Part shown: positions 3,474 through 27,341 of the stretch, in pieces
How the letters are laid out: each line of letters starts with the position of its first letter
How positions within the stretch are numbered: the stretch's first letter is position 1
From: a virus
Lineage: Duplodnaviria; Caudoviricetes
Length of the DNA stretch: 27,731 bases
Virus record (IMG/VR): IMGVR_UViG_3300020439_000054
Span: 1-27,731 of that record
Reading direction: 5' to 3' (one strand)
Made by a program: the position numbers and the translations under genes
The notes under the pieces: generated by a model
Told to the model about the DNA's origin: nothing
Seen by the model: the letters and a program-made list of their open reading frames with translations, nothing else
The model's database searches: none

Positions 3474-4955
3474 TTATATTAATTTCCAATTTTTTCTTTG
3501 AGGAAACAAATAATCATCTTCTTCGTAAACTAACTCAGCTTCATGTACAGGTTTATAACAATTTTTATTAGCATAGAAAAATCCATCTAATAAGTCATCA
3601 TGTTTACCTCTAGGGTATAAAGTAAGTTCATCTACTAGTGCTTGCATATTTTTTTGTATAAATACTTTATTATTAGCAAATATAGGCTGCAAACTTTCTA
3701 ATCTGTACGATTTTCTAGTTCTAGGGTTTTCTTTTATTTCTAATCCTGGTATAAATAAACCCTCTTCTTCTGCACGTTCTTTAATATATTGACGTAACAT
3801 TTCCTGATACCCCACAGATTCTATTCTAGTTTTAGAACTTCTGTAGTTTTTAAAGTTATGTATGATAGCATCTGCTAAATCTAGAGGAGTCGCCCTCTTT
3901 CTGAAATACGGGAGTACCCAACGATTATTATCACTATCAATAGCAATATTGAATATAACACTGTAATCAGCTCCTTTCTTGGTACTAGATGCGGGATCGA
4001 CTCCAGTAAACACGTTTACAGGTCTAATCTCTTCCACTTCCTCACCATTTATGTTCGTCAGTACGAGATTCGACAATCCCTGTTCATCTCTTTCGATGTA
4101 TCCATCGTAGTAGTTAATATCTTCGGCACGGAATAAATTGTCTTCATCTCCTACGATTTGACACAAATATTCTCTATAAAATACCGATAATCTGTTAATA
4201 CTGTCTAATTCTTCTTTCTTTTCTATTAATTTTTTAATAGGCCATACTTCAGGCCATAATGCTGTACCAGATTCTAAATCAGGGCTAAACATTAAGTTAC
4301 TCCAACCTTTCATGTCTTTTAACGTCTCAACCATACATCTTTCATGTTGAGGAGTACCAATAACACATATCCTCCCACGGAGTGGGTCCAAGGATGGAAC
4401 ACCAGATTGTAGAAGCCAACGTAGATTATACTCCATAGCTTCTGCAGTTTTTGTATTAACCTCATCTTCAGGATCATCCAGTATAAGCAAAGTCGGTCTT
4501 TGATTACCATGTTTGATACCTCTAATTTGTTGTCCTGTTCCTTTACATATAATAATACTTCCATCTTTTAGTTCTATCTCTGTATTAGTCCACTTCCTAG
4601 CCGAGTTCTGTCCCCAGTATCCAAAAAAGTATCTAAACTCTTGAGAATAATCTAATACATCTTTTATAGTACCTAACAACTTTGTAGCATGTGATTGCGT
4701 TCTAGATACCAATACAATTACTTTTACACCTTTATCCATCATCAAATGCCATAAAGGATATACACCAGCTACGATAGAAGACTTAGCATGTCCACGTGGT
4801 GCTATAATATTAATTTGTTTTTTCTCACTTTTTAGTTCTTCTACTATATCGTAATGAAATCCTGGTGAGTTTTCACTAAACATATTAGGCATAACCATCC
4901 TACCGAACAGAAGCATATCCTGTTCCATTTCTAATAATATTTTCTTTTTATCCAT
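3474..4955 (-). CDS. terL: Terminase large subunit
   Basis: Walker A APRGHAKS, Walker B LLILDDPE, coupling motif IGTP, RNase H-like GVDPA and HDDLLD; ATG at 4955 overlaps the upstream TGA. Confidence 0.95.
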   Translation of the reverse strand: MDKKKILLEMEQDMLLFGRMVMPNMFSENSPGFHYDIVEELKSEKKQINIIAPRGHAKSSIVAGVYPLWHLMMDKGVKVIVLVSRTQSHATKLLGTIKDVLDYSQEFRYFFGYWGQNSARKWTNTEIELKDGSIIICKGTGQQIRGIKHGNQRPTLLILDDPEDEVNTKTAEAMEYNLRWLLQSGVPSLDPLRGRICVIGTPQHERCMVETLKDMKGWSNLMFSPDLESGTALWPEVWPIKKLIEKKEELDSINRLSVFYREYLCQIVGDEDNLFRAEDINYYDGYIERDEQGLSNLVLTNINGEEVEEIRPVNVFTGVDPASSTKKGADYSVIFNIAIDSDNNRWVLPYFRKRATPLDLADAIIHNFKNYRSSKTRIESVGYQEMLRQYIKERAEEEGLFIPGLEIKENPRTRKSYRLESLQPIFANNKVFIQKNMQALVDELTLYPRGKHDDLLDGFFYANKNCYKPVHEAELVYEEDDYLFPQRKNWKLI

Positions 4956-5065
4956 CAATCTTTTATAATTAAAGTAAGCTTAAAGTCTTCTGCTACTTGT
5001 GTAAGTACAGCAAGGAACTCTATCATATCTATCTTCTTACCTTCTAACTTAATCGTTTTCTTCAT
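4955..5065 (-). CDS. Small hypothetical protein (36 aa, MKKTIKLEGKK...)
   Basis: Translated by hand; start overlaps the end of the TerS candidate, stop overlaps TerL ATG (TGATG), suggesting translational coupling. Confidence 0.5.
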   Translation of the reverse strand: MKKTIKLEGKKIDMIEFLAVLTQVAEDFKLTLIIKD

Positions 5066-5816
5066 CTAACATTCTCGTTTGTGTTGCTTTTAGCTTTTTA
5101 GTTTGTTTATCATATGTATCTGCTATCTGATGAGACATATCCATTTCTATAGACTCTGTTATTTGTTTATTCTTAGGTTTCATATCTAGAAACTCAGATA
5201 ATTCTTTTGCAGCACGTATCATATTAGCTGGATCTTCTTTCATCTTAGCTACATCTACTGCATCTTTTATAACATCTAGTACGTATCCTTCGTCAATCTC
5301 TCTATCTATTAGTATTTCTTTTAGCTTATCAGCCATAATCTTCTTAACCTCTTTAGTTTTTAACAATTTTTTTACAGCCATCTGCGGATTTTTCTGATCT
5401 GGCCTGTAAATTGTACCAATTTTATGTAAATCAGGCTTTTTACCTGATATTTTGTAGGCTAGAAACGCATCTATTGCTAATTCTGCTCTATCTCTTACTG
5501 CTTCTAGCTCTGCATACGTTTTAGTAGACACATTACTGTAGTTTTTACTATGGTAATGGGGTTCAAACTTTAATTTACCAGTCTTTGATACCCATTGCCT
5601 ACCATATGGAAACACCATTTCAACACTTGTACCATAAATGTTACGCTGTAAACACTCAGCCACATAACCATCGTCACTAATTCCCCAATCACCAGGGCTA
5701 CACTTGTTCCAATGTTTATATTTCTTGCCAGTTTCCTTAAATTCTTCCAGAGGATAAACGTAATAGTCTTCCTCTTCAAAGTTATTTACCTTCAGTCTTC
5801 TCGTTATCTTTATCAT
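5049..5816 (-). CDS. Probable terminase small subunit with extra N-terminal domain
   Basis: Upstream of TerL; C-terminal half has a TerS-like helical pattern (KLLKTKEVKKIM...YVLDVIKDAV...IRAAKELSEFLDM). Confidence 0.65.
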   Translation of the reverse strand: MIKITRRLKVNNFEEEDYYVYPLEEFKETGKKYKHWNKCSPGDWGISDDGYVAECLQRNIYGTSVEMVFPYGRQWVSKTGKLKFEPHYHSKNYSNVSTKTYAELEAVRDRAELAIDAFLAYKISGKKPDLHKIGTIYRPDQKNPQMAVKKLLKTKEVKKIMADKLKEILIDREIDEGYVLDVIKDAVDVAKMKEDPANMIRAAKELSEFLDMKPKNKQITESIEMDMSHQIADTYDKQTKKLKATQTRMLDEEND

Positions 5817-6010: not shown

Positions 6011-6039
6011 TTGACATCCTTATTTTTTAGTAGTATACT
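6011..6039 (+). promoter_or_regulatory. Near-consensus sigma70 promoter, rightward
   Basis: TTGACA (6011-6016), 17 nt, TATACT (6034-6039). Confidence 0.7.
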
Positions 6040-6740: not shown

Positions 6741-6776
6741 ACTATTACTTAATACCCTACAATAGCGGTAAATGTG

Positions 6777-6808: not shown

Positions 6809-7030
6809 TTGGTCGTGAGTTACTTAGAAACTTGTAGTAAGCCTGAACTAGTTCATCAGCTTACATTAGTCTTTACTTGCAACAATAGAACAATACTAGA
6901 TAGTAATGTTCAACAAGTATTAGATGAATCTACAAAAGAAGAACTAATAGCATACAGACGACTTGGTGTCGTTAAAAGTATGAGAAGAATAACCAAGATA
7001 GTAAAACAAAGAATTAAAGCAAGTGCTTAG
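6809..7030 (+). CDS. Hypothetical protein (~71-73 aa)
   Basis: GAGGAG RBS; GTG at 6815 is the better-spaced start. Confidence 0.65.
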   Translation: MVVSYLETCSKPELVHQLTLVFTCNNRTILDSNVQQVLDESTKEELIAYRRLGVVKSMRRITKIVKQRIKASA

Positions 7031-7469
7031 CTAGTATTTGCTTTAATGTTCGTAAGCATGTGAATGTGTATTAACCCACATCATGCTGATTAGGTCTCGA
7101 TAGAGTATGAGCATACTAAATAGTATGTGAATGGCTAGCAAAAGCTAGTACCAATCGAACTCTGCACTAAAGTGATAACGAGTAGGTTATCACCAATAAA
7201 TGCATAGAATACAAGGTCAATCAGTCGAGCCTTGCTATGCCACATGATTAATACAATGAACAAGAGTGGAGACACTATCAAACTTGTTTGAGTATGCCTG
7301 ATAAGGTATGAGTGTGTATTGGTGTGAGGGAGGCTCCTCACCAGGTAAATCAACAGAGTTGCAAGTAAACTCTAATCTTGCACGAACACGCTAGTCTGTT
7401 AAGCCACACAGCCATCAATGTAGATGTGTTGTAAAACTTAACAGACTAGTAGTTTTACTCAGATACCTA
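7013..7469 (+). ncRNA. Candidate large structured non-coding RNA
   Basis: At least 10 helices with G-U pairs on the + strand, a GAGA tetraloop, an H-type pseudoknot (7355-7382), a 13-bp perfect stem (7391-7403/7437-7449), and no + strand ORF of 60 aa or more. Confidence 0.6.
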
Positions 7470-7487
7470 CAATAAAAGGAGTGTGGT

Positions 7488-7760
7488 ATGAGTAATTTAA
7501 TAGCAATAACTGTCATGATAGGACTAACAATAATATGTTTGTTCTTACTATGTATGTTAATGATAAAATGTTTCTATACATTAGTACATTATCATGATAT
7601 GTTGCAAACAGAAAGAGTAAAAGTGGTTGCATTGGAAGAAGATAACAAGCAAAAAGATCTGAAGATACAAGAATTAAAGCGACCACACACAACACGCAAC
7701 GAGTACTTAACAAAGGAATTGTTCGATGACATCAAGCAAAACCAATTTGAACAAGTATAA
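7488..7760 (+). CDS. Membrane-anchored protein with coiled coil (90 aa)
   Basis: AAGGAG RBS; hydrophobic N-terminal ~25 aa; charged C-terminal half. Confidence 0.75.
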   Translation: MSNLIAITVMIGLTIICLFLLCMLMIKCFYTLVHYHDMLQTERVKVVALEEDNKQKDLKIQELKRPHTTRNEYLTKELFDDIKQNQFEQV

Positions 7761-7869
7761 GAAGCGTGCAGTTAGTAAAAACCAAATCCGTAAACTTGTC
7801 AATATGCAGAAAGCAAAGGCCGAAAGAGCCGCTGATAAGTTTATGGATTGGGTGGAGAGTTGGAGATAG
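7726..7869 (+). CDS. Small basic hypothetical protein (47 aa, MTSSKTNLNKYKKR...)
   Basis: Translated by hand; AAGGA RBS; overlaps the previous gene's end. Confidence 0.5.
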   Translation: MTSSKTNLNKYKKRAVSKNQIRKLVNMQKAKAERAADKFMDWVESWR

Positions 7870-7876
7870 ATTCGGT

Positions 7877-7947
7877 GGCTATGTAGTGCAGCTAGAGACT
7901 CAAGAGTCTAAGATGGTAATAAAGGTATACAACTGGCTGCACTAGCC
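7877..7947 (+). other. Intergenic branched stem-loop
   Basis: TAGTGCAGCTAG 7884-7895 / CTGGCTGCACTA 7933-7944 enclosing AGACTC-aa-GAGTCT 7896-7909. Confidence 0.6.
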
Positions 7948-7961
7948 TATAAGGAGGAAAG

Positions 7962-8548: not shown

Positions 8549-8710
8549 ATGAAAGAAAGAAAAGTAATATCAGTAAGTAACAGAAAAGGTACAATGATGG
8601 TAATAGATGTCGAGACAATACCAAATAAGAAGAACAGGTTAGGTAAACCCTACAAAGTTTCTACTACAAAGCATGTCAAGATAGATAAATCATTATTGAA
8701 AGGAGAGTAA
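8549..8710 (+). CDS. Small basic hypothetical protein (53 aa)
   Basis: ATG 8549 immediately after the previous stop is preferred over TTG 8510. Confidence 0.6.
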   Translation: MKERKVISVSNRKGTMMVIDVETIPNKKNRLGKPYKVSTTKHVKIDKSLLKGE

Positions 8711-8853: not shown

Positions 8854-9253
8854 TAAAGAAATACTCAGACGATTTGATGAAGAGATGACTTGGGCTGGAG
8901 AACAGCTTGAAGCATGTAAAGATATAGAATCGTTTGAATTAAGAACTGCAATAGTTGAGAAAGTTTTGACTATTGCACAAGAGAGATTGGAAAATGGTGC
9001 AGATAAATATGAACGTCAAGTTCCAATAACTTTGCAAGAGTGTATAGATGTAAATCGAAACAACCTTGCAGAATCAATAGAAGAAGTAATAGATGGTTTG
9101 ATATATGTAATAGCTGAGACTATTTTACAAACTCAACTTACAGATGACATAACATCTAGTTACTTGAAGAAAGCTAAGGCATATCAGTTTTACAGCTTGT
9201 ATTTTTTGATGATAGCTGATATGCAAGATCAAAAAGGAAAAGAAAATGAGTGA
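8840..9253 (+). CDS. All-alpha protein, possibly NTP pyrophosphohydrolase (MazG-like superfamily)
   Basis: RLENGADKY...ESIEEVIDGLIY resembles the G-x-x-K-Y / E-x-x-E-E-x-x-D pattern of phage all-alpha pyrophosphatases. Confidence 0.45.
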   Translation: METNNKEILRRFDEEMTWAGEQLEACKDIESFELRTAIVEKVLTIAQERLENGADKYERQVPITLQECIDVNRNNLAESIEEVIDGLIYVIAETILQTQLTDDITSSYLKKAKAYQFYSLYFLMIADMQDQKGKENE

Positions 9254-9551
9254 TCAATCAACACGCTCGTTTACTGGCGTGAGATATAAAGTAAACAGTT
9301 CAGATTGGGTAGTAGATAACTCCGATGCTGTTAATAGATGTGTGACAGTTAGAGATTTGTTTGACTATCTTCAAACAGCAGATAGAGCTAACTACGATCT
9401 TATAGACAGAGATAGTTCTGTTGTAAGAATGAATATGAACAAAGTTAATTTCAATGCGGAGTTAACTGCAATAAGGCCTAACGATAGTGATGGCGATGGT
9501 CAGCTAGCATATGTTGCTTTCAATAAGCAGTCTATGAAGGGTGGTCAGTAA
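9246..9551 (+). CDS. Ubiquitin-like (beta-grasp, ThiS/MoaD-type) protein ending KGG-Q
   Basis: TVRDLFDYL helix, VVRMN strand, terminal AYVAF strand, di-glycine plus one extra residue; first gene before E2-JAB-E1; AAGGA RBS; TAA TAA TAA stops. Confidence 0.75.
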   Translation: MSDQSTRSFTGVRYKVNSSDWVVDNSDAVNRCVTVRDLFDYLQTADRANYDLIDRDSSVVRMNMNKVNFNAELTAIRPNDSDGDGQLAYVAFNKQSMKGGQ

Positions 9552-9559
9552 TAATAACC

Positions 9560-9583
9560 GAGGGGTGACTTATGTTGCCCCTC
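9560..9583 (+). other. GC-rich hairpin between Ubl and E2 genes
   Basis: GAGGGGTGAC-ttat-GTTGCCCCTC, 10 bp with 2 G-U pairs; no U tract. Confidence 0.7.
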
Positions 9584-9601
9584 AATACCTTAGGAGGATA
9601 A

Positions 9602-11476
9602 ATGTCGTGGATTAAGGAAAGTTGGGATGATATTGACATAGATATCAATAGCATCGCACAGGAAATAATAGTGGGTCCATCAAATAGAGTCGCAAGAGCT
9701 ATGATGGAATTGAATAACAGATACATTACTTGTAACTACATGTCAGGTAATAGAAGTATGTTAGAACCACTAAAGCCAGTAGGTTTTACAAGAACTTACA
9801 GGTGGTCACCAGGGTACCAAGATATTATCAAAGAATGTATAACCGAAAGAATTATGCAGATAGATAAGAAAGGTACTCTAACAACAATGTTCAATAGAAT
9901 GGGTAACAACGAATGGAACTTAAGGAACTTCAAAGAAAGAGTTCTTACAATAGATGATATGCTAAAAGATTTAAGGTCCCGAAATGTTACAACAGACTCA
10001 GATCTTGAGATAGCTTCAGAAAATTTACAAGCTATCTTTGACAAACTAAATCAGAAAGCTAATGAAGCTGACTTAATATTTGGTTTGAGAGATGACATTG
10101 AACATAAAATATCTTTCGAGTATTACAACGACGATAAGTATGAAGATATAAGTGATGAACAAAGAGAACTATTAAGGTTTCTTACTGGTAAAGTTAGATT
10201 ACAATTACACTACAAGAATCCAAAGATAGAATTACATATGAGTAGATTAAATGGTAGAGAAGTAAACAAAAGCTATGGTCAATTTAGATTGGCACAAGAT
10301 TTGTATATGACATTCTCACTACCTTTCTATCCTTTGTTTCAATCTTTGTTTACAGCTAACTTTGAAAGTCTGAACTGGAGAGATTTACATCAAGACTATA
10401 GAGCTAGAAATACAATATCTACTTATCTAACAAGAGCAGATATGCCAAGCAATGTTGCAGCTACTAACTTTAGTACAGATAGAGCTATTCAAGCATGGTG
10501 CGGTGGTAAAGATGCAGGACTTAGATCTCATCCTTACATTGGTAATGGTTCAAGTATTTACGAGTACAATGATGATGGTAGTTCTTTTACTGACTTTGGA
10601 GTTAGATATCAAGCACATCATGTATGTTTTGGTACTATGGATGATTCAATAAGAGATGCTTTTACAAAGCTAGACTTTGTAGAACTAATTAGTTTGATAG
10701 AAGATTGGAATAGATGGGATATATATGATACAAATCCACTTAACAATATATCTTACTGCATTAGAACATTACCAGCAAAAGATGTTGATGCTAGTTTCAT
10801 TACAGATTCAGGCAACTTTAATGCTGAGTTAGTACATCAGAATCTTATGAATGATATGCATGGAGATTATCGCCAGTTACGTGACAATAGTTACTTTGGA
10901 CGACCTAGAATAGAATACAATGACCATTCTATGGATTATGGGTATAGTCAAAATGTTAGTAGTATACATAATGCTTTAGATGATTATGCAAATCCTAAAG
11001 AACATACAGACTATAGTTCTGTTCCATATTATGGTTGGAACTTCTCTCATCATTGGTGGACTCCAAACAAAGAGATGATTCGTAGAACTTCATTACCATG
11101 TCTTGATATAGGCATGTTAGATTACAATGACTATGTTGATGAAGAAGGTAATAAAGTTGAAGATGAACATTGGGTAGTAACTGAAAAGATGGTAACTGTT
11201 CATATGGAGTACATTTATGCAAACATATCTAGGGTAGTACACATACTAGATGAAGATGAATGTATTACAAGAGACTATGGCTATTACAAACAAATGAAAG
11301 ATGTTATTGACTATGTAGAAAATGGTTGTATAACAAGCTTTGATTTAGATGTAAAAGAAAGTATAGCAGAACAAACAGAGCTTGAACAAATAGAAGCTGA
11401 AGATGAACACTATGATTACTTGTATTACCAACAACAAATGGATGATGCAATAGAAAGAGAGTTTGACAATGAGTAA
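9602..11476 (+). CDS. Multidomain protein with prokaryotic E2 (UBC-like) domain
   Basis: HPYI (H310) followed by HVCFG (C342) and amphipathic helices; AGGAGG RBS; lies between Ubl and JAB genes. Confidence 0.65.
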   Translation: MSWIKESWDDIDIDINSIAQEIIVGPSNRVARAMMELNNRYITCNYMSGNRSMLEPLKPVGFTRTYRWSPGYQDIIKECITERIMQIDKKGTLTTMFNRMGNNEWNLRNFKERVLTIDDMLKDLRSRNVTTDSDLEIASENLQAIFDKLNQKANEADLIFGLRDDIEHKISFEYYNDDKYEDISDEQRELLRFLTGKVRLQLHYKNPKIELHMSRLNGREVNKSYGQFRLAQDLYMTFSLPFYPLFQSLFTANFESLNWRDLHQDYRARNTISTYLTRADMPSNVAATNFSTDRAIQAWCGGKDAGLRSHPYIGNGSSIYEYNDDGSSFTDFGVRYQAHHVCFGTMDDSIRDAFTKLDFVELISLIEDWNRWDIYDTNPLNNISYCIRTLPAKDVDASFITDSGNFNAELVHQNLMNDMHGDYRQLRDNSYFGRPRIEYNDHSMDYGYSQNVSSIHNALDDYANPKEHTDYSSVPYYGWNFSHHWWTPNKEMIRRTSLPCLDIGMLDYNDYVDEEGNKVEDEHWVVTEKMVTVHMEYIYANISRVVHILDEDECITRDYGYYKQMKDVIDYVENGCITSFDLDVKESIAEQTELEQIEAEDEHYDYLYYQQQMDDAIEREFDNE

Positions 11477-12371
11477 GTTCGTAATGAATAAAGATGATTG
11501 GGATAAAATACATGAGTATTGTAAGTATGCATACGATAAGTATTCATCAGAAATTGGTGGATACTTAACTGTATCATATGAAAATGATAAGTTTGTATTT
11601 CATAGTCCAGTCATATTAGAGCAAGAAATATCAGGTGGCAATACTGAGATTACAGCAGAAGCACTAACAGAATACTATATGAAAGTAGATATAGAAAATA
11701 CTGGTAAACCATATTGGTTATGTTGGTGGCATAGTCATCATACTATGGGTGTATTTTGGTCAGCTACTGATGATGCAGCAATAGCATCACAAGAGTGTAA
11801 CAACTATACATTTGCTCTTGTAACTAACTTGAAAAGAGAACAGATCTTAAGAGTTAGTGATTGGAAAACTGGTATACAAACAGATACTAAAGTAGAAATA
11901 CTAGGTGATAAGTTTGAAATATCAGATGAAACAAAGAAAGAAGTGGATACACTTTGCAAAGAAGAGAAACTTGTAATCAAAAAAGTAAATTCTCCTATCG
12001 TAAATAGAAGTGTTTATTACAATGATTATAGTGGCTGGGGAAGTCAAGTATCTCTTTGGAAAGATCAAGTTGATCAAGAGAAAGTAGACTTAGAAGCAGA
12101 CATTGATAACATATTAATTGATTATCAATCTGATGATGACTACGAAGCATGTAGAAAAAAGTTTGCTAATCTCAATAGAAAACAAGGTCATAAAAAAAGT
12201 GAACTAAGAGTTGCTTTACTAGATAAGAAAATACTCGATAAAGTTATAAACTCTGCACTAGCAGAAGAGTACATATATCCTAAGGGTACACAACATAACG
12301 TAGAAAACATGATAGCAAACGCAGAGTTAGACGATGTGTTCAATGCTAGTTTTGAAAGGAGCTCGAAATGA
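11469..12371 (+). CDS. JAB/MPN+ (JAMM) metallo-isopeptidase
   Basis: EIGG glutamate and exact H-x-H-x7-S-x2-D motif (WWHSHHTMGVFWSATDD); C-terminal extension; ATG 11469 preferred over TTG 11463. Confidence 0.9.
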   Translation: MSKFVMNKDDWDKIHEYCKYAYDKYSSEIGGYLTVSYENDKFVFHSPVILEQEISGGNTEITAEALTEYYMKVDIENTGKPYWLCWWHSHHTMGVFWSATDDAAIASQECNNYTFALVTNLKREQILRVSDWKTGIQTDTKVEILGDKFEISDETKKEVDTLCKEEKLVIKKVNSPIVNRSVYYNDYSGWGSQVSLWKDQVDQEKVDLEADIDNILIDYQSDDDYEACRKKFANLNRKQGHKKSELRVALLDKKILDKVINSALAEEYIYPKGTQHNVENMIANAELDDVFNASFERSSK

Positions 12372-13021
12372 ATGAAAGATATTCAGGGTTAGTTAATAAC
12401 TTTAATACTTACGCATATCATTTCTTAGGTTGCGGTGCTATTGGTAGTGCCGCAGCTGTAACTATGGCTAAGATGGGTGCAAATATAATACATTTGTATG
12501 ACATGGACATAGTAGAAAGTCCTAACATAGGTGTTTCAATTTATGATAGGAACGATTTGAATAAGCAAAAAGTAATTGCATTGAGAGATAGATTGTTAGC
12601 AATCAATCCAAGAATAGATGTTGTTACTCATCACGGTGAGTTTCAAAACATTTATGAAGAACATAATAACATTGTTATTTTGGGGTTTGATTCTATGAAA
12701 TCTAGGTTAGATGCAGTTACTAATATACTACAAACGGTATCACCAGATATCTTAATTGATGGTCGTATGGGTGCAGAACATTATCAACAGTATACATTTA
12801 AGAAACCAACGCTTACGAAATATAAAGCAACTTGGTATGATGATGATACAGCTGATGATGAACCATGTAATGCTAAAGCTACAAGTTATTGTAGTAGTAT
12901 GAGTGGTAGTTTCATATGTAATAGTGTGAAACAAATCTTGAAAAATGAACCATATCTAGAAGATATTACTTTCAATTTTCAGCATATGTCATTAGATTCT
13001 AATGATGGTTTTGTAGGTTAA
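12368..13021 (+). CDS. ThiF/MoeB-family E1 adenylyltransferase
   Basis: GCGAIGS nucleotide loop, DMDIVESPNI, KQKV, GFDSMKSR, IDGRMG, candidate catalytic Cys in EPCNAK; ATGA overlap with JAB. Confidence 0.92.
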   Translation: MNERYSGLVNNFNTYAYHFLGCGAIGSAAAVTMAKMGANIIHLYDMDIVESPNIGVSIYDRNDLNKQKVIALRDRLLAINPRIDVVTHHGEFQNIYEEHNNIVILGFDSMKSRLDAVTNILQTVSPDILIDGRMGAEHYQQYTFKKPTLTKYKATWYDDDTADDEPCNAKATSYCSSMSGSFICNSVKQILKNEPYLEDITFNFQHMSLDSNDGFVG

Positions 13022-17906: not shown

Positions 17907-20900
17907 TTAATCTTCATCGAAGATAGAGAAGTCTGGATCTATTGGTTCATCTCTACTAGCTTTTTCTTTTTGCTCTTGTCTCATTTCGTGAACAGCATGT
18001 AATGGTAATCCAGTCATAAAGTCTACAGCCATAGCTGGACTATTGTATGTTCTTAAACCATCTCTTACAAGTCTACCAAATGGAAAATAACTATACAAAG
18101 TATAATCTTTGAACTGATCAAAGTCTTGATTTAGTATAGCAGTTATAGGTTGCATTACAAATCTACCAATAGGTGGTGTTACAACTTGCAATGGTGCTAA
18201 CACTGGATGTGGATAAGAACTAAAGAATGCTCTATCTCTTGCTTTCTTATCACCAAATAATAATGCAGCAGTATCTTGTAACCAATTCATAGGAGGAGAT
18301 AAAGCATATTCAAATATAGTAGATACAAATATATTAGCAAGAGCTAATGACATTAAATCAAAAGTAAATTGTCGTTGAGCTTTCTTACTTGCTAGTACTT
18401 CTGTGTTCCATTCTGCTTGTCTAGCTTCTTTAAACAATCTCATACGTCTACCAATACTATTCCATGCATATGGCTGGAATCTAGTCAATACACGACCTAA
18501 TGATGTATTAGCAAAGTTAGGTCTAAATGTAGCTTGATACATAAACTGAGACGCTTCAACACCTTTCAATGCATAGTTAATAAGTACTGGACTATCAAAA
18601 GGTATCTGATCTTTTATAGGTTCTAATACACTATCTCTCATGTTAATGTAGTTAGCTAAGAATGCAGTACCACGTAGTTTACGTTCTGACCATTTCATAG
18701 GTAAAGCACCAAACTCTACAATAGGTACTTCTACTTTTAAATCTCTAGCTACTTCTCTTAATGTTTTACGTTGCAACTGCTCATAGGTAGCTTTTGTTTG
18801 TACATCATTCTCTCTGGTACTCTTGTTAACACGTTTAATAAATTCTTGCCAAAACTTTCTCACACCTTTTTTACCAAAGTTTCTATCTAATGCTACCATG
18901 TCTAAGAACATTTGATCATATACACCTAATGATTCTAACCATGTATCTATATCAGCTCTAGATTCAAAACCTCTTTCTTGTTTCTTACCTGTAGATTCAT
19001 TAAAGAACTCAAACTTAGCATTCATACCTTGCATCATACTTAGTAAGTAGTTAGTACTATTTGCTTTTCTAAATGCACTCCAACCTGTATCAGCAATAGT
19101 ATTTACAGTACCACCATACATATTTGTAATAGCAGTTTTAGGGTGTGATAGTAGTGATAACAACTCAAACCTTCCTTCCAAGTCACTGATACCTCTTATA
19201 CGATTCAATACAGCATTTCTTCTTTCTGCTTCACCAATGACTTTACCTTTTACATTTTTAACTTCAGGTAAACTACCAAATAATCTACCACCAAACAACT
19301 TGTTTATACCATCAAATAGTTTTACAGCAGACTCATCACTAGTTAAATGATACAATGAATTATATTTACCAGTTACATTTACTTCTTGTGAAAGTTTTTT
19401 AGCTCTGGTCATACGTAAATTGTTTACTTCTTTAGTAGCCTGCTTAACATCGTTCTGATTTTTAAATAGTATGTTTTGTTTTTCTGCACCACTAACTCTA
19501 ATAGCAATATCAAAATCTAACAACTTATCTTTCTCTGCTACACTAAGTCTTAAGCCCTCACGTGATAAGTTATTATCAATATATCTTTTGTAAAGCCCTT
19601 GGTCTTTCTTCTCAATACCATGTATATTCAATGCTCTATAGTTAGACATACCTAACATATTTGTAAAAGCATCTCTCATATATCTAGACCAGTTCTCAAC
19701 AAACCCTTCTTTACCATTAACCTTATCAAATCTTCTTAACAATAACTCAGCTCTAAACCCAGCTAAATTAGTAAGATGTGCTTTTATTAGTTGTTGTTTA
19801 TAACGTTTCATCACATCAATATTTTTACTATAGTAAGGTAAGAACTCTTGTCCTCTGTTTCTTAACATAGAAGCAGTATAGTCTCCAACATATCCTTTGT
19901 AATTACTTCTAGTAAATAGATCTCTTACTTGTGCTTCTGATTCATAACCACCATTACTAGCACTATTATCCATCTCTCTTCTAAATCTAGCCATTAAAGT
20001 GTCTTTAAATATATTAATAGCTTCAGACTTAGATAGTTCATTATATTCAACAGCCATACGTAAGTCTAATGGTAGTTGTTGGAAACCACCTGGTTGTTTA
20101 ACTTCTTCAATTCTTTGTTTGATTTGTTTCTCTGCAAATGCTTGTATCTTTGGTATGTTAGCAGCTATATCAAAATGTCCCATACGTGGCATATAACCTC
20201 TATATACGTCTCCTACAATATGTTCTCTATAAGAAGCTTTGTCCATTTCTTTTTTAATAAACTTAGTTACAATACCTCTTTCTTTAATATTCAAAGGTTT
20301 ATCTAGGTTGATTTCTGGATAAGAAAATTCTAATCTATCTCTTATTTGCATATGATACTTAATAAAAAAATAGTCATTAATACTAAAGAACTCACCAAAT
20401 ATTGTACGATCTGGTGCTGCTTGTAAGTCAAACTTCTTAAACATTAAGTTAACTAACTCTGGTCTTATTAATCCATGAACATCTAAGAACATACTTTCCA
20501 TTTTATTCAATGCAATGTTTTTATTTAACAATGCTGTTTGTTGTTCACTCATTGTCATATTTTCTATTTGATCTTTAGTGTATCCTTCAAAAGCAGTTAA
20601 TGGTTGTTTAGATTTATACAAATTCATTTTTACTTTTTGTTGCTTGAAAAACTTTTCAATACTTTCCCAATTACTTTTTATGTAAGAGTTGTTTATAGAT
20701 TTTAAGTCTTGTGCAAATCTCTGTGCTAATCTTTCACTATAAGTTTGTGCATCTATCATCTCAGACTTACCACCATCTTTTGCTGGCCACGGAAATTTTA
20801 AACCAGTAAGCTTAGCTACAGTATCTGTAGAATCTATAAATGCTTCTTTGATTCTTTGTTTTGCAGTTGGACTTGTTTCATTGGAAGGATACTTACCTTG

Positions 20901-23900
20901 TTGATATTCGTTTATATTCCAAGCATGTTCTATTAACAAGTCTCTATGTTTTATAAGATTAGCATTATCTATATTTAAGAAGTTGTAAAAACCATTATGT
21001 TGTGCTTCAATACCAGATGCCATTAGTTTTTGCAAAGTATCAAATTTATCTATAGTTTTTCTACCTAACTCTAATGTACTAGTAGGTAATATAATATTCA
21101 TTGTTTTAGGTTTTTGTTGTCCAAACTTATCAATAACTGGTACTGCAGCTTTAATATATTCTATCTCTTCAAATGTTTCTAACTTCTTACCTATAACTTT
21201 ATAGTTTAACATCTGTTCTAACCAACCTGGTTTTTTAATTAATTTACCAGTAGTTTTATCTACAATACTTTTAGCACTAAATCTTTCTTCTAATGCATTA
21301 TTCAACATTCTTAAGTCTGATGTATTTAAAGTATCTAATCTTCTACCTACACCTTCTAATTTAAATGTAAGACCAATCCAAAACTCTTCAAATCTAGCTA
21401 TAGTACTAGGAGTCTTTCTCATTATGTCTCTTAGTCTATCTATTTCAACTTGTGCTTCATCAGTAAGTAGTTCATTTGGTTTTGCTTTTTTCTTTAACCA
21501 ATCAAACTGTGGTAATATTTCATCTAACATTTCATTAGTTTTCTTTAACTGGTCTACAGTTTCTGGAGTATCTTTAATAGGTTTTTTTACTGTTCCTTTT
21601 TCTATTGGAACTTTATAAAGAGTACCGTCATCATCTGCTTCAAACTCATAGTCCATTACTTCTTCTTCAACTCTTTTTTCTTTCTTTTTAAGTTTATTAT
21701 CTCTTACTTCTGTAAGATTGTTTTTTACTCCTGTGTCATAATCAAAGCTAGGCTCTACATCAAAAGGTATTTCTTCTTCAAGATATTTCTTTAAACTTAT
21801 AGACTCTTCAGGTAGTTTTAATTGTTCTGTAATGTTTTCTGTTATTTCTTTTAAATATTTAGATTGAGATTTAAAAAATTCTTCTCTATTACTATTTTTA
21901 ATAGCTAAAGATCTGTAAGCATAATCTAATGTTGGCCTTAATTTTTTAAACGATCTACCTTTTTCTTTTAAATAATCATGTATACCAGAACTTTCTAAAT
22001 CATTTAATAAATTATTCTCAGTTAAACGTTGTATTTCTTTTCTAATCTTATTATCTACTTCAACAAAATCTTTTTCTTGGTGCTTTAGTATGTCTGTTTG
22101 TGCACTTCTAAAATCACGTGTCAACAACCAATAGTCAATTAAAGTTTCAATCTCATTAACTAAATCATCTCTATTCTTGTATTGATTTCTATACTTATCT
22201 TTTAATCTAACTATAATACCATTAATTTCTTTAGGAGTAATCTTAATTTCTTTCTCCATATTACCTATACCATATAACTGTGTTTCAGTATAAAAGAATG
22301 ATTTTATTCTATAGGTAGTATCTACAATATCTGCTACAATTTTTTCTGCTGTTTCTGTTCCTACTCCAGTATTAGCAGCTTCTCTAATAAAATCTCTACT
22401 TCTTTGCAAGCTTGAAAAAATACCTTGGTAATCCATTAACTTATCATGCATAAGATATGGACTAGTATTCATAATTTCTTTTAAGTTAATCTCTGTTTCT
22501 ATATGTGTATTCCAAAAATCTTTTAATCCAAAACGTTTAAATAGTTTATCACCTTTAACTAATTCTCTTAACTTTTGTACATACAATCTAGCAACATCTA
22601 ATTCACTTCTACCGCTTTCTGCTTGATTTTTTAATGCTGCTTCATTGTAATAAAACTTATACGGATTAATAAAGAAGTCAGGTGTTCTCATAACAGCTTC
22701 TGCTATATTAGAATAAAAAGGTATATCAGTGCCCATTTCATTCATGTATTCTTGTGCAACTCTACTATATTCATTGATCTTTAATACACTATTACCACTT
22801 ACTTTATACATATCTTTATGTACTTTTTCTGTAAGATATAAACCATATGCATTTTCTGTTGTAGCAAAATAATTATTACCTTTAAGAGAAGGAGTGTATA
22901 TAGTTGTACCATTTACCTCCATAACATCTCCAGTAACCTTAAAATAAGTTTCCCATACCTTGTTAATAATCTTATTATAAAATTCTACCTTTGAAAAATT
23001 AGCAGAGTCAGCCATAAGATTAACAATATTAACACTATCTAATTGTAATTGTTTAGCAATCTGTTCTAATGTAACTTTACCAGCCTTACCAGGTAATGTA
23101 TCATTCAATCTAATTTGTATTTTACCATCTGATGGTTTTTCATTATATACATAACTTGTTTCAAATACACCATTACGTTTTACAATTACATCAGCTAAGT
23201 TCTGCATACGTGTCATGGCATCTACTATAATACCCATTTGTTGCTTACCACGTCTAGCCATTCTTGCTACTTCTATTCTAGAATTTACATCTACTAAGTC
23301 TGCAAAATTACCAGCAGGTCCTTTATCTTGAGCTTCAGATATTAAATCTTTAAATATTTGAGTAGGTTTTTCAAAGTTATATAATACACCATCTTGTAAA
23401 AATTCATTATCATATTTCTTAAATGCTTCTCTTATGTTCTTCGACATACCAGAATATACTGAAACAGAGTCAGCATCTTTATCTGCACCACCTAAATAAT
23501 AATCATTCTTAGATGTTGTATATATACCAAAACCTTTTCTATCTACAAACCCTGCAAAGTCTAACACTCTTACTCCACCATTACTACTATTAGGAGAACG
23601 TACTAACATAAATTGCATAGCAGCTGCTAATGCTTCTTTATCTGCTTTATCATACTTAGTTTGAGTAGGTGATAATGATTCTTTATATTTACCAAATGCA
23701 GACTCCAATGATTGTACACCACCTAAATTATCAGGTAATGCTATCTCATATTCTTTTGCAAAATTTCTACCCATCATAAATGTATTATCATTTAACTCTG
23801 GATGTCTAGCAAATGTCTCACTATCTCTTGGTCCTAACTTACCTGTAGTAGAATGCTTTATTTGAGGAGATACAATTCTAGATGTTCTATATCTAGCCAA

Positions 23901-26900
23901 TGATTTATCTACAAACTTTTTAATATTTGGTTGTAATAATATACCAGGGTCATAATCTAATCTTGTTAATATATCGGGTATTTCATAAACTTCTAACCCC
24001 ATTAATCTTTGTGCTACTTCATCTGTACTCTCTGTTACTAACTCTCTATAATCTTCACGACCTCTATTTAATATCTTATCTATTACTTTACGTGACAAAG
24101 GACTAGTAATATCTCTAGATAAAACATTATTTAAACTCTCAATACTAATATCATTTACATTAAAATCATATGTTTCAGGTAGTTTATATTGTCTATCTTG
24201 TAATGATTGTTGTGCTATCTGATCAAACTCTGCTGTTCTATTTGGATCACCATTGTAAGAATCTTCTACTAACTTATTATAATCATCTTTAACACCTTTA
24301 GCTAAGTCTGGTCCTAGTTGTTGTTCATTTATTTTATCTAATATTTGTTTTTGAAATGGTGCTGGTTTATTGCCTTTAAAGTTTTCATATACACCCATAT
24401 TTAAATACAATTCATCAGGTCTCATTTTAAATGGTTGTAATGTACTATCTACTAACGTCCAAGAATCTGTAGCTTTTACAAACTCTATAGTATGTTCTCT
24501 TAATCCTAAACTTGTTTTAGCTGCAGTTTTAGGTACAATAAAATCTATACCATTTTCAAACATAAATTTTTGTTGTGCTTCTGTAGCTCTAAATGTACCA
24601 GTTTTTAATAATATATTACCAATAGGATTCTCTCCATACTCAGGTCCCTTATATCCTACTAACTTTAAAAAACCATTATTAGAAGGTCTAAAGTTTCTAG
24701 TTTGTATAGCATCAAATACTTCATGTCTAGCTATAACTGCAGCATCAGTACCAGATTCAGAGTTATTAAACATAGGGTCCTGAAAATCTTTTACCATTAT
24801 CATATTAAACTTACCAGCTTCTCTATTATTAGCAGGATTGTTTTTAGCTTCTGTAGATGTAGTATTTACATATTCAGCAGCTTCCAATGGTATATCAGCA
24901 CCTTGTGATAGGTTTGCATATTTGTTAAATTTTTGTACATTAGCATATAAAGGATTGTTTATATATTTTTTAGTAGCAGCAACCATAAGGTCAATACTAA
25001 ATCCATTTCTAGGGTCATACAATCCAGACTCAATTAATGTATAAAATATATTAGATAAAGTTGCATCATCTTTTACTTTAAACTTTAATCCTTCTACTTC
25101 ATTTTCTAATCTTCTAAAAAACTCTAAACGATTATTATCTCTTATTGCTTTAGTAAATGCATATCTATGTACAACAAGATTACCATTATCTTTTGTACCA
25201 CCATATATGTACATACCTTTTTCATCTAAAGATTTAATTAATCTATTTTGAACTTCTTTTGTAAATTGTTCTTTAATATTAAATGCATTGTCATGTACTT
25301 GTTTTCTACTAGCATTTTTAAAATCTAAGGGCCCACCATTTGTTCTATCATAAACAGGTATTTCTACAATCTCATCATTTCTACCCATTCTTTCTTTTGT
25401 AAATTTTTCAAAGTATGATTTTCTTATAAGCAATCTTGCTTCTACTGGATCACCTGCAAAAGTTTTATTCCATTTACTTTGAGGTCTATCTCCACCTAAT
25501 ACTTCACCCTTAAAATCTCTTTCTGGTATCTTACGTATCTCAACAACATCACCAGTTAAATCTATTTCATAGTCTACTCTTCTTGTAAAATTCTTTTTTA
25601 GTTTTAAATAACTACCAAGTCTTTGGTTATTAACACCTACATCAGTAAAGAATGTATTAGGTAATCCTAACTTTTCATATTCTTTTAATATTGCAGCTTT
25701 AGTAGGATTTAATTCATAGTTATTATCTTTTGCTAACTTGGCTATGGTAACATTAATTTCATCTAAATTTCTACCAATCTTAAATCCTCTAATATCATTA
25801 GCTATTAATTCTAAGTCTCTATTTTTTATAGCAACCTTAGGTTCATTCAAGTCTGCATTAGCTGATATCTCTAACATTTCATTGTATGCTATATCTATTT
25901 TGTTTTGTAATACTTGATTCTTTATAGTATCAGTAGCATCAGGTTTTACATTTTCATATTCAGCTGGTCTTTCTTGTACTCTAATATCTATATCAGTAGG
26001 ACCTTGTAAGTCTTGTACTGCTCTATCTTGCTTAACTTGTTTAAATACTTGTTCAAACTGTGGTTGTGTAAGTTGATTAATATCAAAACCTAATTTTTCT
26101 ACAGCTTTTGCTATCTCAGGTATTTTCTGTAAGTCTCCCATAAGTGGAGCATGCATATTAAATTTTTGTGCAACTACTTTAGCTATATAAGTTTCTACAT
26201 ATGCTTGGTCGTTCTTGCTTAATGCTTGGAACTCAGGATCTTTTCTTGCTACATCTATAGCTTCTTGTTCTGTCATACCTAGTCTATAATTCTTATAATC
26301 ATTCTTCATTATAAACTTAGTTCTTGCAGCAAACCCAGCTGACTTAGTAGTAGCACCAAAGAATGCACCTAACATATATTCATATACTTGTTCTGCTACT
26401 GGTAATCCTTGTGCAGTAGCCATACCACCCTGAGCAATAGAACCTAATGTACCACGTACAATCATGTTCAATCCTTCAGTCTTAGCTGCATCTTTAGATA
26501 CTTCAGTTGCTACCTGACGTATAGTATCTTGACCTAACTTTCTAGTCTTAGGATTTTCTAATAATCTACCTACATTAACATAGTTACCTATTGTACCAAA
26601 CAAAGCACCAGCAGCAGCACCATGCATAGCAGAATCTATCATACCCTTAGGGCCATCTTTCCATGCTGATACACCTAATGCTACACCAAGATGTATACCT
26701 TGTTCTCCTATGTTTCTTAATTTAGGACTAGCAAATATACCCTTAGATAAATAACCACCTGCTGTTACCCCTGCACCACCTAAGAAATTTTTAGATTGTT
26801 CTACTACATAATCAGCTACCTTCATTGGTACTGATTGTAATGTAAATGTTTTTGGTCCAACTTTTTTACGTAAGAATCCTGGAGCTTTACTACCTGCTGC

Positions 26901-27341
26901 TTGTAATGCACCTCTAGTAACAGCACTACCACCTATGGCTGCACGTTTAGCAGCTGCTATTGGTATATACTGTCCCATAGAAAAGAATGATGCAACTACA
27001 TCAGGAGCAAAACCTATAAGGTGTCCTAATTTATTTGCAATAGATTCAGCAGTAGTATCAGGTTCTTCTGACCAACCTAATGTAGTAAAACCTTCTACTA
27101 AACCACTTGTAAATTGATTCATAGTAGAAAGCAAGTTAGCATCGGCAGCTTCTAAATCTCTGTTAAATTTTAAATCTACCTTCTTAAACTGTCTTTCTAT
27201 ATAATCAACTTCTTCTTCTGTGAAAGATGTTGGATTAGTTCTATATGCAAGTTCTAAACGATTAAAGTATTCTTGTGGTTCAATTATTTTTTGACGTACT
27301 AATTGATCTAAATACTTTAATTCAGGATTTATTAATTTCAT
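17907..27341 (-). CDS. Giant virion/ejection protein containing a two-barrel RNA polymerase
   Basis: GTDAA (D866), FLK, LLKTG, TAAK, VRSP (R1248), LGGADKDAD (D1287/1289/1291), GKQQMGII, MADSA (D1445); no Cys seen in 3144 aa; Gly/Ala-rich hydrophobic N-terminus. Confidence 0.8.
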   Translation of the reverse strand: MKLINPELKYLDQLVRQKIIEPQEYFNRLELAYRTNPTSFTEEEVDYIERQFKKVDLKFNRDLEAADANLLSTMNQFTSGLVEGFTTLGWSEEPDTTAESIANKLGHLIGFAPDVVASFFSMGQYIPIAAAKRAAIGGSAVTRGALQAAGSKAPGFLRKKVGPKTFTLQSVPMKVADYVVEQSKNFLGGAGVTAGGYLSKGIFASPKLRNIGEQGIHLGVALGVSAWKDGPKGMIDSAMHGAAAGALFGTIGNYVNVGRLLENPKTRKLGQDTIRQVATEVSKDAAKTEGLNMIVRGTLGSIAQGGMATAQGLPVAEQVYEYMLGAFFGATTKSAGFAARTKFIMKNDYKNYRLGMTEQEAIDVARKDPEFQALSKNDQAYVETYIAKVVAQKFNMHAPLMGDLQKIPEIAKAVEKLGFDINQLTQPQFEQVFKQVKQDRAVQDLQGPTDIDIRVQERPAEYENVKPDATDTIKNQVLQNKIDIAYNEMLEISANADLNEPKVAIKNRDLELIANDIRGFKIGRNLDEINVTIAKLAKDNNYELNPTKAAILKEYEKLGLPNTFFTDVGVNNQRLGSYLKLKKNFTRRVDYEIDLTGDVVEIRKIPERDFKGEVLGGDRPQSKWNKTFAGDPVEARLLIRKSYFEKFTKERMGRNDEIVEIPVYDRTNGGPLDFKNASRKQVHDNAFNIKEQFTKEVQNRLIKSLDEKGMYIYGGTKDNGNLVVHRYAFTKAIRDNNRLEFFRRLENEVEGLKFKVKDDATLSNIFYTLIESGLYDPRNGFSIDLMVAATKKYINNPLYANVQKFNKYANLSQGADIPLEAAEYVNTTSTEAKNNPANNREAGKFNMIMVKDFQDPMFNNSESGTDAAVIARHEVFDAIQTRNFRPSNNGFLKLVGYKGPEYGENPIGNILLKTGTFRATEAQQKFMFENGIDFIVPKTAAKTSLGLREHTIEFVKATDSWTLVDSTLQPFKMRPDELYLNMGVYENFKGNKPAPFQKQILDKINEQQLGPDLAKGVKDDYNKLVEDSYNGDPNRTAEFDQIAQQSLQDRQYKLPETYDFNVNDISIESLNNVLSRDITSPLSRKVIDKILNRGREDYRELVTESTDEVAQRLMGLEVYEIPDILTRLDYDPGILLQPNIKKFVDKSLARYRTSRIVSPQIKHSTTGKLGPRDSETFARHPELNDNTFMMGRNFAKEYEIALPDNLGGVQSLESAFGKYKESLSPTQTKYDKADKEALAAAMQFMLVRSPNSSNGGVRVLDFAGFVDRKGFGIYTTSKNDYYLGGADKDADSVSVYSGMSKNIREAFKKYDNEFLQDGVLYNFEKPTQIFKDLISEAQDKGPAGNFADLVDVNSRIEVARMARRGKQQMGIIVDAMTRMQNLADVIVKRNGVFETSYVYNEKPSDGKIQIRLNDTLPGKAGKVTLEQIAKQLQLDSVNIVNLMADSANFSKVEFYNKIINKVWETYFKVTGDVMEVNGTTIYTPSLKGNNYFATTENAYGLYLTEKVHKDMYKVSGNSVLKINEYSRVAQEYMNEMGTDIPFYSNIAEAVMRTPDFFINPYKFYYNEAALKNQAESGRSELDVARLYVQKLRELVKGDKLFKRFGLKDFWNTHIETEINLKEIMNTSPYLMHDKLMDYQGIFSSLQRSRDFIREAANTGVGTETAEKIVADIVDTTYRIKSFFYTETQLYGIGNMEKEIKITPKEINGIIVRLKDKYRNQYKNRDDLVNEIETLIDYWLLTRDFRSAQTDILKHQEKDFVEVDNKIRKEIQRLTENNLLNDLESSGIHDYLKEKGRSFKKLRPTLDYAYRSLAIKNSNREEFFKSQSKYLKEITENITEQLKLPEESISLKKYLEEEIPFDVEPSFDYDTGVKNNLTEVRDNKLKKKEKRVEEEVMDYEFEADDDGTLYKVPIEKGTVKKPIKDTPETVDQLKKTNEMLDEILPQFDWLKKKAKPNELLTDEAQVEIDRLRDIMRKTPSTIARFEEFWIGLTFKLEGVGRRLDTLNTSDLRMLNNALEERFSAKSIVDKTTGKLIKKPGWLEQMLNYKVIGKKLETFEEIEYIKAAVPVIDKFGQQKPKTMNIILPTSTLELGRKTIDKFDTLQKLMASGIEAQHNGFYNFLNIDNANLIKHRDLLIEHAWNINEYQQGKYPSNETSPTAKQRIKEAFIDSTDTVAKLTGLKFPWPAKDGGKSEMIDAQTYSERLAQRFAQDLKSINNSYIKSNWESIEKFFKQQKVKMNLYKSKQPLTAFEGYTKDQIENMTMSEQQTALLNKNIALNKMESMFLDVHGLIRPELVNLMFKKFDLQAAPDRTIFGEFFSINDYFFIKYHMQIRDRLEFSYPEINLDKPLNIKERGIVTKFIKKEMDKASYREHIVGDVYRGYMPRMGHFDIAANIPKIQAFAEKQIKQRIEEVKQPGGFQQLPLDLRMAVEYNELSKSEAINIFKDTLMARFRREMDNSASNGGYESEAQVRDLFTRSNYKGYVGDYTASMLRNRGQEFLPYYSKNIDVMKRYKQQLIKAHLTNLAGFRAELLLRRFDKVNGKEGFVENWSRYMRDAFTNMLGMSNYRALNIHGIEKKDQGLYKRYIDNNLSREGLRLSVAEKDKLLDFDIAIRVSGAEKQNILFKNQNDVKQATKEVNNLRMTRAKKLSQEVNVTGKYNSLYHLTSDESAVKLFDGINKLFGGRLFGSLPEVKNVKGKVIGEAERRNAVLNRIRGISDLEGRFELLSLLSHPKTAITNMYGGTVNTIADTGWSAFRKANSTNYLLSMMQGMNAKFEFFNESTGKKQERGFESRADIDTWLESLGVYDQMFLDMVALDRNFGKKGVRKFWQEFIKRVNKSTRENDVQTKATYEQLQRKTLREVARDLKVEVPIVEFGALPMKWSERKLRGTAFLANYINMRDSVLEPIKDQIPFDSPVLINYALKGVEASQFMYQATFRPNFANTSLGRVLTRFQPYAWNSIGRRMRLFKEARQAEWNTEVLASKKAQRQFTFDLMSLALANIFVSTIFEYALSPPMNWLQDTAALLFGDKKARDRAFFSSYPHPVLAPLQVVTPPIGRFVMQPITAILNQDFDQFKDYTLYSYFPFGRLVRDGLRTYNSPAMAVDFMTGLPLHAVHEMRQEQKEKASRDEPIDPDFSIFDED

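Follow-up and report, generated by a model that had tools for sequence, protein, structure and literature searches.

A large, doubly pseudoknotted RNA, apparently of a previously undescribed class, in a group of marine phages

The window analysed here, a 27.7-kb virus record estimated to be 56% complete, contains what is almost certainly a real structured RNA, and this large, ornate and doubly pseudoknotted phage RNA appears to represent a class that has so far gone undescribed. It sits in the 457-nt gap between the open reading frames (ORFs) at 6809-7030 and 7488-7760, where a rightward block of genes begins, divergent from the packaging genes. Since small variable ORFs precede the replication genes in this block, we take it to be the early region. 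A near-consensus sigma-70 promoter (11/12) lies in the divergent region at 6011-6039 (+) and is directed into the early block. The gene products of the window include a P22-like portal, a terminase large subunit, a DnaB-like helicase, a RusA-like resolvase, Prok-JAB and ThiF; an ORF of 3144 aa at 17907-27341 (-) has no Pfam, PHROG or PDB match. Near-complete relatives of the phage measure 44-54 kb, isolate phages are all distant (their best terminase matches are only ~25% identical), and the RNA runs that contain this stretch are marine or seawater wherever labelled.

We recovered 26 distinct full-length homolog sequences in five subtypes (A-E), with identities to the window of 76-94% in subtype A, ~51% in B and 39-44% in C. 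The overall fold consists of a 5' hairpin, a five-way junction closed by helix P1 and then a terminator-like hairpin. In window coordinates, the features are:

6752-6762 (canonical) and 8649-8655: copies of the motif ATACCCTACAA on either side of the variant copy given last in this list
7013-7047 (+): P0, the 5' hairpin, of ~15 bp with a conserved 5-nt loop, U(A/C)GCU, at 7028-7032
7048-7387 (+): conserved core, a five-way junction of 340 nt here and 338-404 nt in homologs
7048-7053/7382-7387 (+): P1, the closing helix, 100% paired in 22/22 sequences, with two-sided changes at 5/6 pairs
7055-7087 (+): P2 arm, following P1 after a 2-nt linker, its loop containing the 5' strand of pseudoknot PK1 (7072-7076)
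7088-7155 (+): P3 domain, a four-way junction whose three small hairpins have GAUA, AAAU and A-rich loops, showing covariation
7158-7164/7354-7360 (+): P4, a long-range helix that encloses the large 3' domain, with several sequence versions, in 24/24 sequences parsed
7172-7179/7186-7193 (+): rival local hairpin in its subtype-A form, mutually exclusive with PK1
7180-7189 (+): staple strand, with 7180-7183 pairing to the P8 loop (pseudoknot PK2), A7184 as linker and 7185-7189 pairing to the P2 loop (PK1)
7194-7198/7317-7321 (+): P5, closing the P6 and P7 domain, with two-sided changes at 3/5 pairs (subtype A)
7202-7240 (+): P6, a bulged hairpin inside P5
7241-7316 (+): P7 domain, with a GNRA hairpin at 7265-7276, an A-rich bulge at 7277-7282 and a GNUA-loop hairpin at 7296-7307
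7324-7341 (+): P9, a variable hairpin within P4
7347-7353 (+): linker AAAUCAA, conserved and single-stranded
7361-7381 (+): P8, a 5-bp stem with a 10-11-nt loop that holds the PK2 strand, abutting the 3' strand of P1
7390-7456 (+): terminator-like 3' hairpin and short U run, unconserved in sequence and beyond the conserved core
7462-7472 (+): variant copy of ATACCCTACAA, the post-terminator motif of this phage group

P4 thus encloses the staple strand, P5 with the P6 and P7 domain, P9 and the AAAUCAA linker. The P0 stem varies in sequence among subtypes while its pairing is kept in 23 of the 24 sequences scored (L242, which has a variant, lies outside this count), and it overlaps the stop codon of the ORF at 6809-7030 only in the window phage and its closest relatives. 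At the other end, an outer helix replaces the 3' hairpin in subtypes C and E; an outer helix at 7000-7007/7452-7459 is present in the window and its two closest relatives and was not given by a duplex scan in the other members of A and B.

Homologs were collected by several routes, which bear on how conservation is to be read. A search with the ORF at 5049-5816, a putative small terminase gene (terS) by its position and without a database label, gave 80 loci, in two of which an island at 7002/7048-7388 was the sole similarity around the gap. A pattern taken from P6, the most conserved hairpin, returned 23 viral, 21 metagenomic and 52 cellular loci; a covariance model built on the 3' 220 nt of the RNA accepted 17, 20 and none of these, respectively, and the matches it rejected (6 viral, one metagenomic and all 52 in GTDB genomes) are attributed to chance. 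The last viral pattern scan produced 26 matches, 22 by chance and four that were already known. Protein-anchored searches added subtype D (L193-L195; best score 71 bits), subtype E (L242; 108 bits) and L202, and the P6 pattern is absent from all of these. Since most homologs were retrieved through that pattern, the conservation of P6 is inflated: its apparent invariance in subtypes A-C is partly an effect of ascertainment, and D and E show variation in it. Presumed likenesses of P6 to group II domain 5 and to SRP helix 8 were dropped, as the bases concerned are altered in subtypes D and E.

The initial annotation had read the gap as a large phage non-coding RNA of no known family, and this reading is upheld by covariation, by indels, by database searches and by contigs from RNA libraries. 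The region 7000-7480 folds at -160 kcal/mol, with z-scores against shuffled sequences of -9.6 on the + strand and -6.2 on the - strand, compared with -2.0 and -1.3 for two coding control regions. Indels are not multiples of three in 20 of the 21 homologs compared (the remaining one has a single 21-nt insertion), indicating that the element is non-coding, and no reading frame was found in the RNA. Rfam includes models for raiA, RNase P, SRP, IMES, manA and introns. ROOL, GOLLD and OLE are also among its families, according to the available part of 10.1101/2024.12.08.627333. A covariance-model search of 7000-7480 against Rfam 15 gave zero matches at E<=1, as did one over the RNA of seven homolog loci at E<=5, and the RNA was unmatched at the gathering threshold in 17 carrier loci. 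ARAGORN reported no tRNA or tmRNA in the window or in any of 43 loci, and blastn against 50,697 phage records left the RNA unmatched. The RNA is nowhere described in the literature searched, whose coverage stops at subscription journals. A screen of IMG/VR gives RNA candidates of at most 151 nt in the accessible part of PMC10690425, and six of its supplementary files yielded nothing that matches either of two P6 motifs or of two contig names, although files 1, 2 and 4 could list fragments.

Covariation provides the main support for the structure. When 22 sequences are aligned by MAFFT without fitting, 90.8% of cells are paired, against 30-39% when partners are slid, and 38 of the 78 pairs show two-sided changes. 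Within subtype A the figure rises to 99.3% of cells over 95 pairs (24-41% in slid controls), 15 of them with two-sided changes. A model-fitted alignment of all 26 sequences, which is biased towards the structure, gives 96% pairing in the 3' part and two-sided changes at 40 of 50 pairs, and P8 in this alignment is 99% paired with two-sided changes at three of its five pairs. The invariant unpaired bases are mostly GNRA or GNUA loop bases (the tetraloop G and A) and a bulged A, which are typical of tertiary packing. Two further candidates were set aside: an apparent invariance of AGUAG reflects a register coincidence in subtype C, and a 19-nt inverted repeat at 6865-6883/7358-7376, which shows no covariation in L127, was taken as chance. 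The alternative that the gap forms a single-stranded DNA structure, also raised in the initial annotation, is disfavoured, because the outcome of many one-sided changes is a G-U pair on the + strand, and because tetraloops of the GNRA type have been conserved.

All ten helices checked from that annotation (eight stems or junction helices and two closing pairs) do pair in the window, and homologs support most of them (subtype A). The stems at 7202-7240, 7258-7289 and 7296-7307 were checked separately, in the register adopted here. The larger design of the annotation holds less well, two of its helices and both of its closing pairs being unsupported. The junction helix placed at 7249-7255/7315-7321 has two-sided changes at none of its seven pairs, whereas P5, which shares its 3' strand, has three in five. 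Covarying helices conflict with the closing pairs proposed at 7091/7469 and 7103/7460, conservation of sequence is absent 3' of 7450, and an architecture closed at 7460/7469 is wrong, the conserved unit ending at 7387. The hairpin at 7390-7450 pairs as proposed but lies outside the conserved core. The one at 7172-7179/7186-7193 likewise pairs and is kept in subtype A, yet it is a form specific to that subtype and competes with a pseudoknot. P1, P4, P8 and both pseudoknots had been overlooked.

The pseudoknots share one staple strand, PK2 joining 7180-7183 to 7369-7372 and PK1 joining 7185-7189 to 7072-7076. A search by geometry alone found P1, P2, P4, P8 and the staple (4 nt, one A, 5 nt) in all 24 sequences parsed, the parse taking in 24 of 25 sequences and leaving out L242; shuffled-linker controls reached the same staple score in 0-7 of 200 trials. 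PK2 occurs in five versions (GAGU/ACUC, CAGU/ACUG, UAGU/ACUA, GGUU/AGCC and GGG/CCC, one of the five having 3/4 pairs), and PK1 in four, plus one more through a G-U change. A local helix of at least 5 bp competes with PK1 in all 25 sequences (L083 was read by eye), occupying the 3' strand of PK1 in subtypes A, B and D and the 5' strand in C and E. In its subtype-A form the inner 6 bp are kept in 13/13 rows, with zero two-sided changes. The rival helix could allow folding in two steps, or PK1 could be swapped between molecules. The latter would suit an RNA-only homo-oligomer, a dimer or cage like those of ROOL and GOLLD, in which PK1, PK2 and the P0 loop pair between molecules. The universal rival helix fits such an assembly, as does the P0 loop, whose two central bases are self-complementary and are both altered in L125 (GC to AU), and no phage protein partner was found; ROOL and GOLLD are themselves phage RNAs that form protein-free cages, as stated in the available part of 10.1101/2024.12.08.627333. 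We nonetheless consider an oligomer unlikely: the double change in the P0 loop is a single event, short rival helices may arise by chance, and the RNA is far shorter than ROOL (~581 nt) or GOLLD (often >800 nt). An oligomer would in any case be a form and not a function, and is compatible with the decoy or scaffold role that we favour below.

Evidence of expression comes from assembled contigs of 8 of the 20 listed RNA runs, the runs having been selected by their match to this stretch; such contigs show neither strand, ends nor level, so depth was unused for ranking and bare flanks were not read as silence. Five of these runs, which come from four studies, have contigs over the element that all lie within 7010-7414 (7012-7381; 7015-7414; 7010-7375; 7038-7375; and 7026-7213 together with 7241-7412). 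Two contigs end in library adapter, at 7012 and 7015, and one run also contained a short piece of a subtype-B-like relative. The other three runs cross the boundary of the element, with a contig at 7040-7858, one at 6926-7079 and pieces over 7351-7633; the run with the contig at 7040-7858 is possibly the source sample. Taken together, these contigs give a weak though consistent hint of a discrete RNA that runs from ~7010 to 7400-7455 and starts at the foot of P0.

All genomically placed homologs belong to one marine phage group, in which the RNA is present as a single copy in one early-region slot. In all 24 loci that reach far enough it lies to the right of the same two small conserved genes, with the putative terS visible in 19; the ORFs adjoining it change between subtypes, and it never interrupts a conserved ORF. 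It is carried by 5 of the 41 loci that are anchored on terS and have 2.6 kb or more of DNA upstream, and its carriers are scattered on the terS tree (16/50, a count enriched by pattern-found loci and wrongly including L240, which has a terS in common with L242). The RNA is absent from all five tested relatives that are 91-99% complete, which excludes an essential packaging or replication role, including that of a phi29-type packaging RNA. The carrier L242 and the non-carrier L240 have flanks that are 96-99% identical and differ by a clean unit of 466 nt that contains exactly the RNA. The RNA is optional and swappable.

In L242, 8-nt direct repeats bracket the 466-nt unit, whose ends form a 16-bp inverted repeat or stem; these features would fit a selfish non-autonomous mobile element. 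The position of the RNA, 1.2-3.5 kb from the terminase genes, and its folding as DNA (z -7.2) could alternatively point to a DNA structure such as an origin or packaging signal, or to a packaging RNA. Both ideas are very improbable. The RNA is always single-copy and in one slot, its ends vary among subtypes, changes that preserve G-U pairs and the tetraloops indicate RNA, and the state of L240 is explained by loss of the unit between short repeats that lie at the base of a long stem. A cis-acting two-state switch, an attenuator or riboswitch-like leader for the downstream ORFs, would make use of the two mutually exclusive PK1 pairings and of the terminator-like hairpin directly after P1, and one contig does span 7040-7858. 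Yet the downstream ORF and the 3' structures vary among subtypes, C and E having an outer helix in place of the hairpin, clean loss of the unit leaves the downstream DNA unchanged, and a separate cassette-start motif follows the hairpin, all of which make such a switch improbable.

That motif, ATACCCTACAA, is present in 32 of 69 relatives at a distance of 0.84-1.37 kb from where terS starts, mostly directly after a terminator-like hairpin, and is possibly a phage-specific promoter or processing site; its copy at 7462-7472 is likely the start signal of the next cassette. As variant copies flank the RNA, separately expressed cassettes are suggested. In four loci (L116:2980-3030, L080, L039 and L250), a short hairpin with GGCAACAGAA takes the usual place of the terminator hairpin before the motif and resembles, weakly (E 0.00026), the final part of the alphaproteobacterial tmRNA model. 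A second small structured motif lies at 7866-7950 in the window, where a ribosome-binding site closely follows a stem that carries a variable insert. L002 and L119 show compensatory changes in this motif, and it has relatives in L003, L007 and L019.

We tentatively favour the explanation that the RNA is a stand-alone, trans-acting non-coding RNA that, being abundant and stable, would bind a host protein of the RNA-binding or anti-phage kind as its decoy or scaffold. This role is inferred from the location of the RNA and from the exclusion of other roles, optional and swappable cargo in the early region of phages being typically host-takeover or counter-defence material. Comparison of five carriers with five non-carriers revealed no protein family that tracks the RNA, and five carrier genomes contain no long complementary match that could be an antisense target. 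Since no phage protein qualifies, a host factor, or possibly the RNA itself, would be the partner. It is conceivable that this partner is a defence protein that cuts tRNA or senses RNA, and that the RNA titrates it by mass action at an early stage of infection. A link to a ubiquitin-like module was considered and rejected, as two carriers that are 93-99% complete have no ThiF gene. The module itself, ubiquitin-like in appearance, occupies 9246-13021 in the window and comprises a 101-aa ORF ending in GGQ, a 624-aa ORF with zero Atlas matches, a Prok-JAB protein scoring below the Pfam cut-off and a ThiF whose best isolate matches are crAss-like and Flavobacterium phages; it is present in two of four near-complete carriers.

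The proposed surface for such a partner is a corner of the folded RNA. P1 would stack with P8, and the P2 and P8 loops would be drawn together by the staple strand. The order of helices (closing stem, 2-nt linker, arm, arm, large arm, 5-bp arm, closing stem) resembles a tRNA cloverleaf with huge inserts, and a corner like the tRNA elbow could therefore be what a host factor recognises. This parallel is topological only: ARAGORN is null, no CCA is encoded, contigs extend 5' of P1, and P1 and P8 together have 11 or 13 bp, against 12 expected.

A new-class ribozyme, acting in trans or processing the early transcript, is the main functional rival. Its size, three multi-stem junctions and two pseudoknots place the RNA among those regarded as 'biochemically sophisticated' in the available part of PMC5737381, and 28 of ~220 positions show no variation among the 26 sequences. 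Most large structured bacterial RNAs with known function are ribozymes, according to the accessible part of PMC10861870, which counts against the decoy. A ribozyme is nevertheless rather unlikely. No Rfam ribozyme matches, contigs from the eight RNA runs contain no excision or circle joint, conserved ORFs are never interrupted, the invariant bases are dispersed over tetraloops and bulges, and P6, the most conserved hairpin, is altered in subtypes D and E. A bolder and more doubtful proposal than the decoy or scaffold is a new RNA class whose tRNA-like corner, itself switchable, would disarm or hijack a host machine with no phage protein involved (or a new ribozyme), as one of several interchangeable cassettes in the slot.

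Non-carriers hold other long non-coding stretches in the same slot, and four of nine tested fold at z -4.5 to -8.0 (L007:3990-4450, L024:3890-4450, L057:4400-5040 and L069:3020-3420, the last on the minus strand). These stretches have zero Rfam matches at gathering and are probably further new RNA families; some share parts, L007 with L019 and L040 with L057. By eye, a tRNA-like stretch can be seen at ~4020-4100 in L080 and a hammerhead-like CUGAUGA..GAAA at ~3830-3880 (minus strand) in L074, both uncalled by ARAGORN and at Rfam gathering. Since the slot appears to hold more uncatalogued structured RNAs, this phage group may be a rich supply of new RNA classes and of RNA-based counter-defence. 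If the cassettes prove interchangeable, the slot would be an RNA-based counterpart of anti-defence gene hot spots.

Large ornate RNAs of bacteria and phages are rare, and most with known function are catalysts or core machines, as far as the available parts of PMC5737381 and PMC10861870 indicate. The RNA described here contributes a compact class whose tertiary model is well supported, and it can be made directly in vitro for probing, cryo-EM and activity tests. Several known classes can be set apart from it. Group I and II introns are disfavoured by the null Rfam result, by an intergenic location throughout, by the lack of joints in the contigs and by loss of the AGC-like stretch of P6 in subtype D. 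Guides of the OMEGA/HEARO or retron type are disfavoured since no protein co-segregates and no self-target was found, and the 29 window ORFs gave no Pfam match to a nuclease or reverse transcriptase. With tRNA and the tRNA-like domain of tmRNA, the RNA has in common the helix order around a central junction and a 5-bp arm that abuts the closing stem. It differs in having no CCA after P1, 7-nt T-loop, anticodon arm or tag reading frame, and its indels are non-triplet.

Comparison with the large non-coding RNAs is closer. Like raiA, as presented in the accessible part of PMC10861870, the RNA would be stand-alone and trans-acting; both have two covarying pseudoknots, occur in varied gene contexts and show no obvious protein partner. 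Whereas raiA is found on the chromosomes of Bacillota and Actinomycetota, as a single-copy gene in which 51 positions are highly conserved, the window RNA is optional, phage-only and of another fold. GOLLD, in the sources as available, is likewise phage-borne, has marine members and is better conserved in its 3' region than in its 5' region; the window RNA is at most half its size and Rfam-unmatched. ROOL and GOLLD also often lie beside tRNA genes, in contrast to the window RNA, with no tRNA gene in the window or in 43/43 loci. ROOL occurs in phages and prophages and is abundant and non-essential where studied, according to the available parts of PMC5737381, 10.1101/2024.12.08.627333 and PMC12191101, and has ~581 nt, six multistem junctions as well as three pseudoknots (PMC5737381, available part). 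The window RNA, with a core of 338-404 nt, three junctions, two pseudoknots, another fold and no Rfam match, was found only in one marine phage group, and it shares with ROOL, as far as the accessible literature describes it, the character of a large, multi-junction, pseudoknotted phage RNA without a known protein partner.
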